From positions 1,472,001-1,536,000 of the forward strand of contig OZ219926.1 of assembly GCA_964291405.2 (NCBI GenBank): a stretch of DNA of 64,000 nt. The letters are read 5' to 3'. Source of the stretch: Thermodesulfobacteriota bacterium (GTDB lineage: Bacteria > Desulfobacterota > Binatia > Bin18). Positions within the stretch are counted from its first letter, which is position 1. Every line of letters begins with the position of its first letter. The position numbers and the translations under genes were made by a program. Shown here piece after piece: positions 3,903 through 64,000 of the stretch. The notes under the pieces were generated by a model. That model saw only the letters and a program-made list of their open reading frames with translations. It did no database searches and was not told the origin of the DNA.

Positions 3903-4394
3903 ATGGTGTCCGACGCCGAGTATAGAGCTGTTGAGGCATTCCTGTACAAAGAGGCGCGCTTCGCGGATGAGGCGCGCTATGCGGACTGGGAAGCCTTGTG
4001 GACGGACGAGGCCGTGTACTGGGTACCGGCGACAACCGACCCGGAGGCTGATCCCAACACCCAGATCTCGCACATCTACGACAACCGACAGCGGATTGCT
4101 ACGCGCATCAAACTCCTGCAAAGCGGCCATCGCTACAGCCAGGAGCCGGCCTCGTTCATGCGCCGGCTGATTTCCAATATCGAAGTCGAGAAAAACGGAC
4201 ACAATGAATTCGTTGTGGGCTCGAATTTTCTTTTGGTCGAACTCTCGGTTCAAGCCAAACATGAGACCCATCTATGGGCCGGACGCACGACGCATACCCT
4301 TCGGCGGATTGATGGTGAGCTTAAGATGAGCCGTAAAAAAGTCGTTTTGGTCAACGCCGCCGAGCCGCTGCCGAATATGTCGTTTCTGATATAG
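3903..4394 (+). CDS. Ring-hydroxylating oxygenase beta subunit
   Basis: FLYKEARFADE...W..LW...YWVP and KKVVLVN motifs; ATG 5 nt after the alpha stop. Confidence 0.92.
   Translation: MVSDAEYRAVEAFLYKEARFADEARYADWEALWTDEAVYWVPATTDPEADPNTQISHIYDNRQRIATRIKLLQSGHRYSQEPASFMRRLISNIEVEKNGHNEFVVGSNFLLVELSVQAKHETHLWAGRTTHTLRRIDGELKMSRKKVVLVNAAEPLPNMSFLI

Positions 4395-33691: not shown

Positions 33692-33706
<15 letters not shown>
33563..33706 (+). promoter_or_regulatory. ect promoter region with repeated operator-like sites
   Basis: TAACA-N3-TGTGA at 33563 and 33683; TATAAC -10-like hexamers; TGTGA-N6-TCACG at 33691. Confidence 0.5.
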
Positions 33707-35905
<2,199 letters not shown>

Positions 35906-35906
<1 letters not shown>

Positions 35907-36823
35907 TGGCACCGACGAGCTCCGGCCGCGAAGACCTGTATCCGTCTCGGATAACCGGTCAGCCACGGCTGACCGAGCGCCTCGACCCGGTCGTCTACCC
36001 CAGCGATTCGGTGACGCAGCGACTGTCCGCCTCTGAGGTCGAGTCCTACGCGCAGCAGGGCTATCTGGTTGTGGAGCACCTGTTCCAGCCGGCTGAAATC
36101 GCCACGCTGAACCGCGAGTTGGAGCAACTGGTGCGCTCCGACGATATTCGGGATCGGGATGAAACCGTTGTCGAGCCCGGAGACCAGGCCGTGCGCTCGA
36201 TCTTTCGGGTCCACAAATTGAGCCGTGCATTCGAGCGGCTCGCCCGCGACCCTCGCGTCCTGGATGTGGCGCGTCAGTTGCTCGGCAGCGAGGTCTATAT
36301 CCACCAGTCCCGCGCCAATCTGAAGCCGGGTTTGACGGGCAAGGAGTTCTATTGGCACTCCGATTTCGAGACCTGGCATGTCGAGGACGGCATGCCGCGT
36401 ATGCGCGCTCTCAGCGTGTCGGTCGCCCTCACGGCCAACTTCACCTTCAACGGGCCCTTGATGCTGATCTCCGGCTCACACACCAGCTATGTTGTCTGCG
36501 CCGGTCGGACGCCTGAGAACCACTACAAGCAGTCGCTCCGCAAGCAGGAGTACGGAGTACCCGACCCGCATTTCCTCAAGCGGCTGGCCGACCAGGGCGG
36601 TATTGTCGCTCCCGTCGGGCCGGCCGGCTCGGCGGTGTTCTTCGACTGCAACACGCTGCACGGCTCAAACTCGAATATCTCTCCCTATCCCCGGCGCAAT
36701 GTCTTCATTGTCTATAACAGCGTTGCCAACACCCTGGAGGAGCCCTTTTGCGGTCTCAAGCCGCGTCCCGAACACATCGCGACCCGCGCGGACTTCGCCC
36801 CGCTGCTTCCTCTGTGCGCATGA
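35906..36823 (+). CDS. ectD: Ectoine hydroxylase
   Basis: Signature FYWHSDFETWHVEDGMP. Confidence 0.96.
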
Positions 36824-41598: not shown

Positions 41599-41900
41599 TC
41601 AACACATCACCACGCCGCCCGAACCGCGAACGGGTTCGACGTATTAAGGAGGCATTGCGCGAAGCGCTGAGCCTCTCCCATGACACGACGGTCACGGTCA
41701 CCGAGCTGGCGTGTCTCGAAGAAGGCTGTGCGCCCATCGAGACCGTGGTTGGCCTGCTTCGGCCCGATGCGCCACAGCTCCAGTACAAACTGCACAAACC
41801 CACGGACGCCGTTGACGCCGAAGACCTGGTCCAGGTCTGCACGGCGTGGGGATTCGACGTCCAGATTCCGGTGCTCGCACCGCTGCTCCAGGAGAACTAG
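41592..41900 (+). CDS. Small conserved protein with ELxCxExGCxPxET motif
   Basis: ELACLEEGCAPIETVV; abuts the COG0523 gene. Confidence 0.75.
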   Translation: MLINTSPRRPNRERVRRIKEALREALSLSHDTTVTVTELACLEEGCAPIETVVGLLRPDAPQLQYKLHKPTDAVDAEDLVQVCTAWGFDVQIPVLAPLLQEN

Positions 41901-52152: not shown

Positions 52153-52225
<73 letters not shown>

Positions 52226-61295: not shown

Positions 61296-62561
61296 TTACT
61301 CGTAGCGAATGACCTCGACCGGTGCCAATCGCGCGGCCTGACGTGCGGGATAGATAGTGGCAAGCAAACAGATCATCATCGACGCGACCCCAACAATGAA
61401 AAAATTCTCCGCATATATTTTCACCGGCAGGGTCGAAACATAGAAAACATCTTTCGGAAGTTCGATAAACTCATAGCGGTCCAACAGCCAACAGCCGACC
61501 CAACCCAGCAGTGTGCCCATAAGCGTCCCGACAACGCCGATGATGAGCCCTTTATAAATAAAGACGCGACTGATGGCATTGCCCGTTGCCCCCATGGACT
61601 TCAACACCGCAATATCCTTACGTTTTTCCATGACCACCATAATCAGCGTGGCAATAATATTGAACGCGGCAACCAGGACGATGAGCAGGAGTACGATAAA
61701 ATACACAACCTTTTCAAGCTTTAGCGCAGCAAAAATATTACGGTTCACCTCGGTCCAGTCTCGGGTCGTATAGGGGAACCCTAACACGCCTTCTAACTCG
61801 CGGGCGACCGTTTGGGCTTGATACACATCACTAATCTTTACCTCAACACCAGTCACCTGTTCGCCAAGGGTAAAAAACTGTTGCGCATCAGCGAGCGACA
61901 TATAAATCAAGGCGCTATCGTATTCAAACATACCCGCGTCAAACACCCCGACAATCACAAAACGCTTCACCCTGGGAACAACGCCAAGGGGGCCGGGGGT
62001 GGTGCTCAGTGGAGAAATGATATTGATCGGGTCGCCTACAAAGACCCCAAGTTGACGAGCCAGTTCGTGTCCTATGAGCACACCGGAAAGCTGAACCGTC
62101 TGGACTGTTTCCTCAGTCTGAAACGTCAACTCCTGTTTTTGGCCGAGCTGATCGACTTCACCAAAAGATAGATGCGCACCAATATCGACCACCGCACTCG
62201 CTAACGAGGGATCGACTCCACGCACAAGCGAGCCAGACACACTCTGTCCCGCACTGACCATCACCTGACCGTAGACAAACGGCGCCACAGCAACCACATC
62301 GGGCACCTGGCTCACCGCGTCAACCACCTCCGCATATCCGTCCACAAAACCCTGCAAGCTGGAAATCACGACGTGCGGATTAAAGCCCAGAATGCGGTCT
62401 CGTAAATCTTCCTCAAATCCCGTCATTACCGCCAAGACGATGTTCAGCGTCATCACGCCAATCATGACTCCAACCATGGAAATCATAGTGATTAGCGAGA
62501 TAAAAACCTCATGCCGTCTGGCTCGCAGGTAACGCAGACTCAGAAAAAGTTCGTATCGCAC
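61296..62561 (-). CDS. lolE: Lipoprotein-releasing ABC permease (LolC/E family)
   Basis: RYLR, VM.GF, VAAFNI..TL.M.V.EK..DIA.L..MGA and YPA..AA...P...IRYE motifs. Confidence 0.88.
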   Translation of the reverse strand: MRYELFLSLRYLRARRHEVFISLITMISMVGVMIGVMTLNIVLAVMTGFEEDLRDRILGFNPHVVISSLQGFVDGYAEVVDAVSQVPDVVAVAPFVYGQVMVSAGQSVSGSLVRGVDPSLASAVVDIGAHLSFGEVDQLGQKQELTFQTEETVQTVQLSGVLIGHELARQLGVFVGDPINIISPLSTTPGPLGVVPRVKRFVIVGVFDAGMFEYDSALIYMSLADAQQFFTLGEQVTGVEVKISDVYQAQTVARELEGVLGFPYTTRDWTEVNRNIFAALKLEKVVYFIVLLLIVLVAAFNIIATLIMVVMEKRKDIAVLKSMGATGNAISRVFIYKGLIIGVVGTLMGTLLGWVGCWLLDRYEFIELPKDVFYVSTLPVKIYAENFFIVGVASMMICLLATIYPARQAARLAPVEVIRYE

Positions 62562-62694
62562 AAGCTACCGGCCCGCCTATCCAAATTGCTGATTCAACAC
62601 TTACCGCTCATTCGGCCTGGCGGGTTTTCTATCATAAAAGAATATCTATTTTTCTTTCTTCGTCATTGGTTAGAATAAAAATTTAATCCAGCAC

Positions 62695-62723
62695 TTGAAA
62701 TATTATTTCAATTCGTTTACCCT
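62695..62723 (+). promoter_or_regulatory. Fur-family-like box overlapping a sigma70 promoter
   Basis: Perfect 8-1-8 palindrome TTGAAATA-T-TATTTCAA (62695-62711); TTGAAA-N17-TACCCT. Confidence 0.65.
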
Positions 62724-62729
62724 GGAGAC

Positions 62730-62783
62730 ATGTGGTGGTGGTTGTGGTGGTGGATAGGCCCCGATTGGGGCACGGGCTCTTGA
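62730..62783 (+). CDS. Putative Trp-rich micro-ORF / leader peptide MWWWLWWWIGPDWGTGS
   Basis: ATG TGG TGG TGG TTG TGG TGG TGG ATA GGC CCC GAT TGG GGC ACG GGC TCT TGA; the ATG lies 7 nt after the -10 hexamer. Confidence 0.45.
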   Translation: MWWWLWWWIGPDWGTGS

Positions 62784-62844
62784 GTGAGCCTTCTTGCTTA
62801 CTGGAATGCCATGACGGTAAAGGAATTTGCGGTCATGGCATTCC
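62730..62844 (+). ncRNA. Candidate structured small RNA / attenuator-like transcript
   Basis: Promoter followed by a GU-rich 5' end and three hairpins (62758-62771, 62775-62790, and a 13-bp perfect stem at 62803-62844). Confidence 0.45.
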
Positions 62845-62917
62845 CCCTCTACTCTCCCTGAGCGCTTTCCTTCGAGAGTCCATTCGTTCCATACACAGCC
62901 CAAGCCATTGTTTTCTC

Positions 62918-64000
62918 CTAGGTTTTTCGCAGCTTGCGTACATCACCGACTCGGACCGTGAGGCCGCTACGGTCGAAGTATTCCAGCAGGGGAATGGCAG
63001 TTTTTCGGCTAATACCGAGCAGGTCACGAAATATGGCCGCGGTAATTTCTCCGTGAGTCGCCACGTAGTCAGTCAGTGCCTCCTTCGCTTGACCTAGCAC
63101 TGTTCCACTGATGTAGAAATCCGGTATAATTTTGACCAGCGTGCCCCGTGACTCAAGCACCCCTAAGAAATCGTTCAGCCGCTTACGAGGAAGTTGTAGT
63201 AACTCCGCCAGCCCCTTCGTGTCCGGTGGGGTGAATTGTCCGTCTTGCACGAGCCGTTCGAGGCGAGCGGCGATGGCCTGCTCTTCCTGGCTCAACGAGA
63301 CAGTGTGGGAGGGCAGACGCAGCAGGCTCTCGTGGCGAACAACAATCCCCTCCGCAATAAGCCGTTCGGCCACAGCCCGAAAAATCTTGGGAGTCAGGCT
63401 AAACGGCAATTGGCTTCGCACCGACTCCATTTCCATCCCCTGAGCCAGCGGAGTCTGGGCGTGAAAGACGGTCAGCATCTTTTCGACGGCGGCAACCAAC
63501 CGCTGCCATTTTGTCGTAATGGAATAGGCTTCGGGATGCTGGGCATCGGGAAAAGGCAGAATCGCCTCATCGTTTGCAAGCAGGACAGTAATTTCCTCCT
63601 CCCGCGCATTCACCCCATGGTAAATCTCGTCCAGCCGGACGGCAAACTGCGGGCAAACTTCCAGATAGGCGTGGCAGGCCTCACGCAGGTCTAGGGTTTG
63701 CAGGGCATGCAAGCGTTCCGTGACCTGAGTTTCCGCCTTACGGTGGCGTTGGGCAAAAGGATTGACCACCACCCCGCCACCCAAGGTCCCCTGCGCGGTT
63801 TGATTTCGCAGCACGAAGTGGTCCCCGCGCAGGGCAACCAAGGGCTCCTGGGCGACAATTTGACACAGGGCTGTCGATTTCGGCGGCAAGACCTCATGCC
63901 CACCAAGCAAGATGATTTTTCCAATGACTTCTGCCGTGCCAAGATGAATGCGCACCCGCTCGTGGTTCACGACCTCGCGTCCCGCGCTCGGCCGAATTTC
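62918..64000 (-). CDS. selB: Selenocysteine-specific elongation factor, C-terminal part (5' truncated)
   Basis: Domain 3 GDHFVLR...TLGGGVV; winged-helix end FRDLLGISRKTAIPLLEYFD..G.T.RVGD.R. Confidence 0.93.
   Translation of the reverse strand, partial: EIRPSAGREVVNHERVRIHLGTAEVIGKIILLGGHEVLPPKSTALCQIVAQEPLVALRGDHFVLRNQTAQGTLGGGVVVNPFAQRHRKAETQVTERLHALQTLDLREACHAYLEVCPQFAVRLDEIYHGVNAREEEITVLLANDEAILPFPDAQHPEAYSITTKWQRLVAAVEKMLTVFHAQTPLAQGMEMESVRSQLPFSLTPKIFRAVAERLIAEGIVVRHESLLRLPSHTVSLSQEEQAIAARLERLVQDGQFTPPDTKGLAELLQLPRKRLNDFLGVLESRGTLVKIIPDFYISGTVLGQAKEALTDYVATHGEITAAIFRDLLGISRKTAIPLLEYFDRSGLTVRVGDVRKLRKT

Follow-up and report, generated by a model that had tools for sequence, protein, structure and literature searches.

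A candidate small RNA derived from a gspC gene remnant in Binatia

A short unit lying between selB and the lolCE genes of a Binatia bacterium is probably the remnant of gspC, a gene for type II secretion, comprising the promoter and the first ~120 nt, that has been kept by selection as a structured non-coding RNA of the plus strand. The region belongs to contig OZ219926.1 of assembly GCA_964291405.2 and was analysed as part of a 64-kb stretch of DNA, here called the window, within which all coordinates are numbered. A first-pass annotation of the same DNA had proposed a Fur-controlled device coupling metal status with tryptophan availability. On the strength of sequence comparison, our verdict is that the unit is a candidate small RNA derived from a gene remnant, and that the Fur/Trp reading is not supported.

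Results

Features of the site

The unit is flanked by two genes on the minus strand. The 3' part of selB (62918..64000, extending beyond the window end) is its convergent neighbour, and a lolCE-type permease gene (61296..62561), the first of a lolCE-lolD-bamA-skp-fabZ-lpxA-lpxI cluster, is its divergent neighbour. Pfam and NCBIfam supported the identities of selB, lolCE, lolD, bamA, skp, fabZ, lpxA and lpxI, confirming the gene context given in the first-pass annotation, namely a unit that faces the selB 3' end and is divergent from lolE-bamA. It had also been stated that no plus-strand gene follows. A mechanically called plus-strand open reading frame of 121 codons (62732-63097, antisense to selB) does exist, but it had no Pfam match and carried a stop in 4 of 14 relatives (L002, L005, L006 and L007), and it was rejected as a gene. 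Elsewhere, the window holds a complete ectoine/hydroxyectoine cluster (ectA, ectB, ectC and ectD, followed by a sodium/solute symporter, at 33692-36823), and its first 28 kb contain many aromatic-ring oxygenase genes.

A plus-strand promoter is predicted at 62695..62723, with the -35 hexamer TTGAAA at 62695-62700, a 17-nt spacer, and the -10 hexamer TACCCT at 62718-62723. This arrangement had been proposed from the window alone; the sequence is present and its layout is conserved in relatives. In the 15-genome alignment described below, the -35 was identical in 14 of 15 genomes, the -10 read TAYYCT in all 15, and the spacer stayed at 17 nt with no indel. Just 5' of the -35 lies a plus-strand A/T-rich box (TTAGAATAAAAA..., 62670..62694), which resembles an UP element and may act as one. 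The box was kept across the 15 close genomes, and an A/T-rich box upstream of the -35 was also found at the gspC promoter of L050, L016 and L055. A simple sigma-70 scan returned 0 sites and did not list the promoter at 62695-62723, because TACCCT fits just 3 of 6 positions of the -10 consensus used by the scan. One relative, L012, has duplicated in tandem 27 nt that span the A/T-rich box and the -35 region (L012:3860-3920 on the minus strand; columns 141-167 of alignment A1); the same genome has the longest GU tract (RNA 139 nt).

Downstream of the predicted transcript start at 62730, the plus strand begins with a GU-rich tract (62730..62757) of (TGG)/(GTGGTTGTGGAT)-type repeats ending in ATAGG. 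This (TGG)-rich tract was the sole example in the 64-kb window when both strands were scanned. Hairpin 1 (62758..62771; GCCCC/GGGGC, loop GATT) and hairpin 2 (62774..62791; GGGCTC/GAGCCT, with a TGA stop inside its loop TTGAGT and a T-rich tail after it) follow, then a pyrimidine-rich single-stranded linker (TCTTGCTTACT, 62792..62802), and then hairpin 3 (62803..62844), in which 13 bp, a mismatch and 5 bp are closed by a GGAA loop and which is likely a 3'-end or barrier structure. A C-rich, G-poor tail of variable sequence (62845..62917) reaches the selB stop codon and might serve for Rho entry. The three hairpins of the first-pass annotation were thus found at the places given for them. Minimum-energy and centroid folds both consisted of three separate hairpins, and the 119-nt stretch folded better than shuffled sequences (z = -3.0), with 1 of 200 shuffles equally good.

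A terminator scan reported one terminator-like site, hairpin 2 with its interrupted T tail, where 0.8 were expected. Hairpin 3 has no U-run after it on either strand, and past it there is no canonical hairpin-plus-U terminator. A scan of 62400-63100 against Rfam 15 at E up to 10 gave 9 matches, all far below gathering scores, the best being a microRNA hairpin model at E 0.14. With no match in Rfam, whose models include Csr/Rsm sponges, SECIS elements and known leaders, the candidate RNA is outside known families. In the lolCE leader, an imperfect 15-bp inverted repeat at 62572-62624 was unconserved in relatives (spacer diversity 0.40). The lolCE leader was also considered as a pairing partner and rejected: a 9-nt match between 62575-62583 and 62751-62759 gives identical, not complementary, sequence on both transcripts, and the spacer holding 62575-62583 on the lolCE leader side is highly variable among relatives.

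Relatives of the window and distribution of the element

Of the 80 loci found by a LolCE protein scan, nearly all bear the title of Candidatus Binatia or of an unclassified deltaproteobacterial MAG. LolE of L001-L015 was 95-97% identical to that of the window, and the 15-way alignment comprised the window and the 14 of these relatives (L001-L015 without L009) that have an alignable selB-lolCE spacer. Eight loci (L019, L020, L025, L044, L048, L050, L052 and L060) carry the titles of Klebsiella pneumoniae or Enterobacteriaceae MAGs. Their LolE proteins are 60-71% identical to that of the window and cluster with Binatia-type loci in a LolE tree, and the titles look mislabelled. Several further peculiarities were seen near lolCE in the sampled loci. 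Just 5' of lolCE, L020:1570-1690 is G-rich with TTAGGGG-like repeats on both strands and L047:3903-3947 is a run of about 40 G. In L064:4001-5172, lolCE seems interrupted, with a 130-residue open reading frame and a match that restarts at 4369, through either a frameshift or an assembly error.

A LolE tree was calculated with FastTree from 75 rows, excluding 6 loci with LolE matches below 380 residues (by our reading L052, L059, L064, L066, L073 and L077). L016 joined the window clade and the L055 group stood apart; the deep forks were not resolved, so that the tree fits one truncation as well as two.

The element is not universal within the clade. In L009, which belongs to the window clade, the element and the spacer are swapped for about 1.6 kb (L009:2360-3990); this insert holds two co-directional open reading frames (117 and 284 residues), neither of which matched Pfam or NCBIfam. 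The selB-lolE spacer of L017 lacks the element, and in L053, which falls in the L055 clade, the copy has decayed. The element is therefore dispensable in some genomes (L009, L017 and L053). A covariance model built from the window and its 14 relatives found no second copies outside the syntenic site in the window and the 80 loci (701,637 bases).

The unit probably derives from the 5' end of gspC

With the same covariance model, L016 proved to have a homologue over the full length (76 bits, E about 1e-20). Matches at the corresponding place and strand were weaker in L055, L056 and L057, and in L064 the match stayed below threshold. In L016 and L064 the match is flanked by gspD and gspC on one side and by lysS-lolCE on the other. 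The link to selB drawn in the first-pass annotation does not hold for these two genomes, in which the homologous element has gspC and lysS as neighbours and selB is absent from the vicinity.

L064 encodes an intact GspC of 296 residues (Pfam T2SSC and PDZ) adjoining gspD. Its GU-rich tract is the very start of GspC and is read in Val/Asp codons; an SD-like motif and the promoter TTGAAT-17-TATCTT precede it. The same layout, a promoter and a GU-rich gspC start region, was found in L078, L021 and L050, so that an equivalent promoter arrangement stands ahead of intact gspC in all four genomes. In L016, the stretch matching hairpins 2-3 runs in frame into GspC, which places hairpin 3 on GspC membrane-helix codons. 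A tblastn search of L016 with the L064 GspC aligned residues 23-295 (E 2e-92), and hairpin 3 overlaps the part of L016 aligned to residue 23 onward. The linker at 62792-62802 corresponds to Leu-Leu-Ala-Tyr codons of the GspC membrane helix, and the window frame after the TGA is still legible as a degraded version of that helix. We also built an HMM from four intact GspC N-termini and searched 7,987 six-frame peptides with it. The L016, L055, L056 and L057 elements scored E 4.7e-14 to 3.5e-6, and the window-clade elements ranked directly next (E 0.017-4.3). The unit thus evidently shares its ancestry with gspC, as regards the promoter, the start region and the codons of the membrane helix.

Gene order tells the same story at the level of the locus. 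Among the 80 loci, lysS is upstream of lolE in 46 and gspC is divergent from it in 15, while selB precedes lolE in 20 loci besides the window. Because many loci are short, these are all minimum counts. They point to gspD-gspC / lysS-lolCE as the ancestral order. The window clade appears to have lost lysS and the body of gspC at this site, keeping only the 5' stump, which now abuts selB.

Intermediate stages are represented in the sample. L016 carries a near full-length gspC (L016:1376-2290, minus strand) interrupted near the 5' end by an in-frame TAG and by a shift of frame within a run of C; the gene may be a genuine, young pseudogene, or the assembly may be at fault. This broken gspC already has all three hairpins. 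The structure may first have arisen as a feature of an mRNA, and a role other than that of a free-standing RNA could account for some of its conservation. L055 and L056/L057, in a separate LolE clade, contain longer gspC stumps with perfect hairpins of their own (12-bp and 9-bp, respectively) about 12-15 nt further 3'. In the L055 group a selD-like gene (L055:2517-3293) lies between selB and the gspC stump; it encodes 258 residues with AIR synthase-related domains, the N-terminal part apparently missing.

The stump is conserved and its helices are maintained by compensatory changes

We compared mean pairwise diversity across the 15 genomes for each part of the unit. The linker was the best-conserved part (0.012), followed by hairpin 2 (0.037), the hairpin 1 region (0.070), hairpin 3 (0.072), the GU tract (0.119) and the promoter (0.129). 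For comparison, diversity was 0.269 at 189 four-fold sites of lolE, and 0.399 and 0.294 in the lolCE-proximal and tail flanks. Across the three helices, 99.2% of 377 alignment cells were paired and 5 pairs had changed on both sides. None of 500 shuffles reached this pairing and slid controls gave 33-51%, although the genomes are close kin and the shuffles overstate significance. When L016 was added through a model-fitted alignment, 9 of 29 pairs had changed on both sides and 99.0% were paired. Both-side changes affected 6 of 18 pairs in hairpin 3, and compensatory changes in hairpin 2 occurred in L010 and L016. One-sided changes in hairpin 1 yield G-U pairs only on the plus strand. The covariation that had been suggested as a check on the stems is therefore present in the relatives' spacers, with five double-changed pairs, or nine of 29 with L016, and the helices first noted in the window are kept by compensatory changes elsewhere. 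Together, the low diversity, the pair changes and the plus-strand G-U fit argue that the element is selected as a plus-strand RNA. The gspC stump, on this evidence, is evidently not decaying and is under purifying selection with compensatory base-pair changes.

This pattern bears on two alternatives in which no RNA acts in trans or at all. The first, which we consider unlikely, is that the unit works in cis only: the promoter would persist because the sequence upstream of it also serves the divergent lolCE promoter, and the hairpins, together with the C-rich tail, would do no more than halt the transcript ahead of selB. The divergent layout, with about 170 nt from the predicted +1 to the lolCE start, is compatible with such sharing. 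In the L055 group, other strong hairpins formed at almost the same position, and 15/15 genomes have a C-rich, G-poor composition over the 70 nt past hairpin 3 (C 24-29 versus G 8-14). However, a mere stop signal would need no near-invariant linker or conserved loops (diversity 0.012-0.04), and the lolCE-proximal spacer is itself highly variable (0.399).

The second is that the unit is a neutral pseudogene stump, functionless and merely not decayed yet. Its derivation from gspC, its absence from L009 and L017 and its decay in L053 would all be expected of such a stump. Yet its diversity is 4- to 20-fold below that of four-fold sites in the neighbouring gene and 4- to 30-fold below that of the flanking spacer up to 100 nt away in both directions, compensatory double changes are seen at nine base pairs, and the promoter is retained in 15/15 genomes. 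We therefore regard neutrality as improbable, and favour retention of the stump by selection as a structured RNA.

The Trp-rich reading frame is not maintained

The GU-rich tract opens a reading frame of 17 codons, MWWWLWWWIGPDWGTGS, seven of them Trp (62730..62783, plus strand; ATG 62730-62732, TGA 62781-62783), which is probably untranslated. Its ATG lies 7 nt past the -10 and coincides with the predicted +1. The first-pass annotation had described a leaderless Trp-rich open reading frame on these grounds; the ATG at the predicted +1 and the 7 Trp of 17 codons are there in the window, but five of the 15 genomes have lost the start or the frame. ATG stands at +1 in 10 of the 15 genomes, and the frame to the stop is intact in nine of those; the tenth, L013, has a 1-nt deletion. 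The other genomes have GTG (L010), ACG (L006, L007 and L012) or AGG (L014) at this position, and in L014 a TGA to TGG change and a 1-nt insertion remove the stop and shift the frame. Start codon and frame are hence kept together in 10/15 genomes (9 ATG, 1 GTG). An ATG/TGG frame shared by relatives' spacers, which had been put forward as a check, is not general among them: four genomes lack the start, L013 is frameshifted and L014 has no stop.

If the unit were a leaderless or dual-function mRNA for a Trp-rich hydrophobic micropeptide, its coding properties should be maintained, and some observations do lean this way. The start codon falls exactly at the predicted +1 in the ten ATG genomes and in the one with GTG, the TGA is retained in 14/15, and the two one-sided changes in the segment IGPDWGTGS are synonymous, L014 aside. 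The tract itself is present in 15/15 genomes and accounts for the variation in RNA length (116-139 nt), its length steps being mostly three or twelve and multiples of three in 13/15. Repeat slippage would give the same stepwise pattern. Against a peptide stand the four genomes with no start at +1 and the disrupted frames of L013 and L014. The third base of each repeat codon is G in all genomes even though Leu, Arg and Lys codons occur, which indicates nucleotide constraint or triplet slippage, and the synonymous changes in IGPDWGTGS are those that preserve G-U pairs in hairpin 1. Diversity by codon position over 62754-62846 was 0.067 / 0.050 / 0.053, with no third-position excess. L064, L078, L021 and L050 read the tract in the Val frame or have it in the gspC leader, and L016 and L055 have no equivalent open reading frame. 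The Trp frame appears to be an out-of-frame reading of what in relatives is the Shine-Dalgarno/Val-rich start of gspC. A micropeptide would be possible in two thirds of the genomes and nothing in the comparison requires one; as an account of the unit it has little probability. A selenocysteine reading of the TGA near selB was rejected because frames are not kept: indels break the frame in L013 and L014, the start is missing in four genomes, and the window frame beyond the TGA runs on into GspC-like codons with no third-position bias.

The hairpins fit the plus strand

A further alternative places the function of the hairpins on the minus strand, where they would serve selB as terminator or 3' UTR, or belong to the lolCE leader. 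The reverse strand folds well too (z = -4.1), hairpin 3 starts 74 nt past the selB stop, and selB, lolCE and the subsequent genes are co-directional. The strands differ in how well the relatives preserve pairing. When the structure was mirrored to the opposite strand for 14 sequences, with L014 and the GU tract left out, 16 of 145 cells were mismatched and pairing was 89.0%, versus 99% on the plus strand. No U-run follows on the minus strand, and the conserved promoter points in the plus direction. L016 has the three hairpins but no neighbouring selB, and the element of L055 is parted from selB by the selD-like gene. A minus-strand function is highly improbable in the light of these comparisons, and we retain the plus-strand RNA.

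The palindrome is a feature of one genome

The first-pass annotation rested its metal-sensing proposal on a perfect 17-nt palindrome inside the promoter, TTGAAATA-T-TATTTCAA (62695-62711; 8-1-8). The palindrome is indeed present at this position; it is perfect in 0/14 relatives, whose complementary arm positions number 3-7 of 8. In the 15-way alignment its left half, which equals the -35, is fixed, and its right half is free to vary. The conserved element within the palindrome is thus the -35 hexamer, and the Fur box as proposed dissolves into an inverted repeat found only in this genome. Across the window, perfect 8-1-8 palindromes numbered 3; composition-preserving shuffles averaged 1.4, and 18.5% of them contained 3 or more. 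The palindrome count is not above chance in the window. The two others are AGACCTGG-T-CCAGGTCT at 41822-41838 and CTTGAATG-C-CATTCAAG at 52183-52199.

A unit under Fur-family control, in which attenuation would link metal status with Trp supply, could point to this A/T-rich palindrome over the -35 and spacer and to seven Trp codons in a short frame with hairpins downstream, but is scarcely credible given that the palindrome is neither kept in relatives nor above chance in number, that the 51 open reading frames of the window include no fur-like gene and no trp genes, that the three hairpins are independent and each kept by covariation, with alternative pairing unsupported, and that the frame is unconserved among the 15 genomes. 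The comparative data on palindrome, reading frame and hairpins therefore contradict the metal-plus-Trp device. Attenuation fails on its own terms as well: the only gene downstream of the unit is the convergent selB, with no regulated same-strand gene, and the hairpins are independent rather than alternative. The fallback offered in the first-pass annotation, a Fur-regulated non-coding sRNA with a GU-rich seed, fared better in part; our preferred reading comes close to it, in that the RNA would be non-coding and GU-rich at its 5' end, but does without the Fur control.

A model for the candidate RNA

In the model that we favour, a sigma-70-type gspC promoter (A/T-rich box, TTGAAA, 17 nt, TAYYCT) would start transcription at about 62730. 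The predicted RNA would consist of a free GU-rich repeat tail, two short hairpins, the free pyrimidine-rich linker and the long terminal hairpin. Transcription would end in the C-rich, G-poor stretch past hairpin 3, a composition that would suit Rho entry, or the RNA would be trimmed back to hairpin 3, which would mark or protect the 3' end. Such termination would keep polymerase from entering selB in the antisense direction. Because the old secretion promoter is retained, the RNA would still respond to whatever controlled that promoter.

The linker is nearly invariant while single-stranded, which argues for a sequence-specific partner in trans. We tentatively suggest that the linker, and perhaps the GU tail, could contact such a partner, be it an mRNA or a protein. 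When the GU tail, linker and C-rich tail were compared with 50 translation-start regions of the window, duplex energies did not exceed those of shuffled controls. A CsrA-sponge function was considered and rejected, the GGA motifs being too few and unconserved. A more far-reaching reading, which we hold to be doubtful, is that the unit represents a new family of riboregulators born from the 5' end of a secretion gene, twice independently in Binatia, reporting the old T2SS signal and acting in trans on envelope functions such as those of the neighbouring lol-bam-lpx cluster. Under that riboregulator reading, trans action would be pairing by the pyrimidine linker or protein titration on the expandable GGU/GGA tail.

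Discussion

The comparison removes a tempting false lead, a metal-plus-tryptophan sensing device, and puts in its place an evolutionary series within one uncultured phylum that would lead from intact gspC through a broken full-length gspC with RNA structure to a 120-nt stump under purifying selection. If expression is confirmed, the unit would be a first candidate regulatory RNA for Binatia. Our literature search returned no prior description of a Binatia small RNA or of a gspC-derived sRNA, with one query too loose for a strict negative, and a term search of the Binatota genome survey (PMC8262859) gave no mention of secretion or of small RNAs.

The unit shares individual features with several known systems. 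Fur-family operators are A/T-rich inverted repeats overlapping promoters, and the window has such a repeat; it differs in that the repeat is restricted to the window genome and the half that is kept is simply the -35. Trp leader peptides and attenuators, including the trans-acting rnTrpL, consist of a short open reading frame with consecutive Trp codons followed by hairpins, and the unit looks alike in this respect. It differs in having no trp genes downstream and no alternative terminator/antiterminator pairing, and in a reading frame that is lost or broken in 5/15 genomes, its Trp frame being a probable by-product of a Val-frame/SD-like tract.

Two families of regulatory RNA offer likenesses of architecture. 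GcvB-type sRNAs carry GU-rich single-stranded seeds. The candidate likewise has a free G/U-rich stretch followed by hairpins, which could in principle pair with C/A-rich mRNA leaders, but it has no sequence or Rfam relationship to them and no target in the 50 start regions of the window, and its GU tract is a length-variable repeat at the extreme 5' end, less conserved than the linker. CsrB/Rsm-type RNAs are protein sponges with repeated GGA-containing motifs. Repeated GGA motifs occur in the free tail of the candidate and one in a hairpin loop, and the ancestral tract overlapped the gspC ribosome-binding region. However, each RNA has just 2-6 GGA, the loop GGA is absent in L013 and L014, no Rfam match to these families was obtained, and no csrA was seen in the window.

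The closest parallel is one of origin. Births of a bacterial small RNA from a coding gene that can be traced stepwise are few, and OxyS is the reference case. According to Krieger et al. (2022, PMC8825220), OxyS is an sRNA born from a peroxidase gene remnant, built from the last ~65 nt of the coding sequence, the 3' UTR and the terminator, with the gene kept at the locus in relatives. The likeness lies in several points: a coding gene divergent from its neighbour was replaced by a short structured RNA from a gene fragment, the intact gene is found at the same locus in relatives, a covariance model made the link, and the RNA stands behind the ancestral regulatory region. OxyS is proven to be expressed and regulatory, whereas for the Binatia candidate both are predictions. 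The two also differ in the material used. OxyS drew on the 3' end of its source gene; in the Binatia unit it would be the 5' end that was kept, with the promoter, the start region and the first ~40 codons, so that a hairpin now lies on what were membrane-helix codons.
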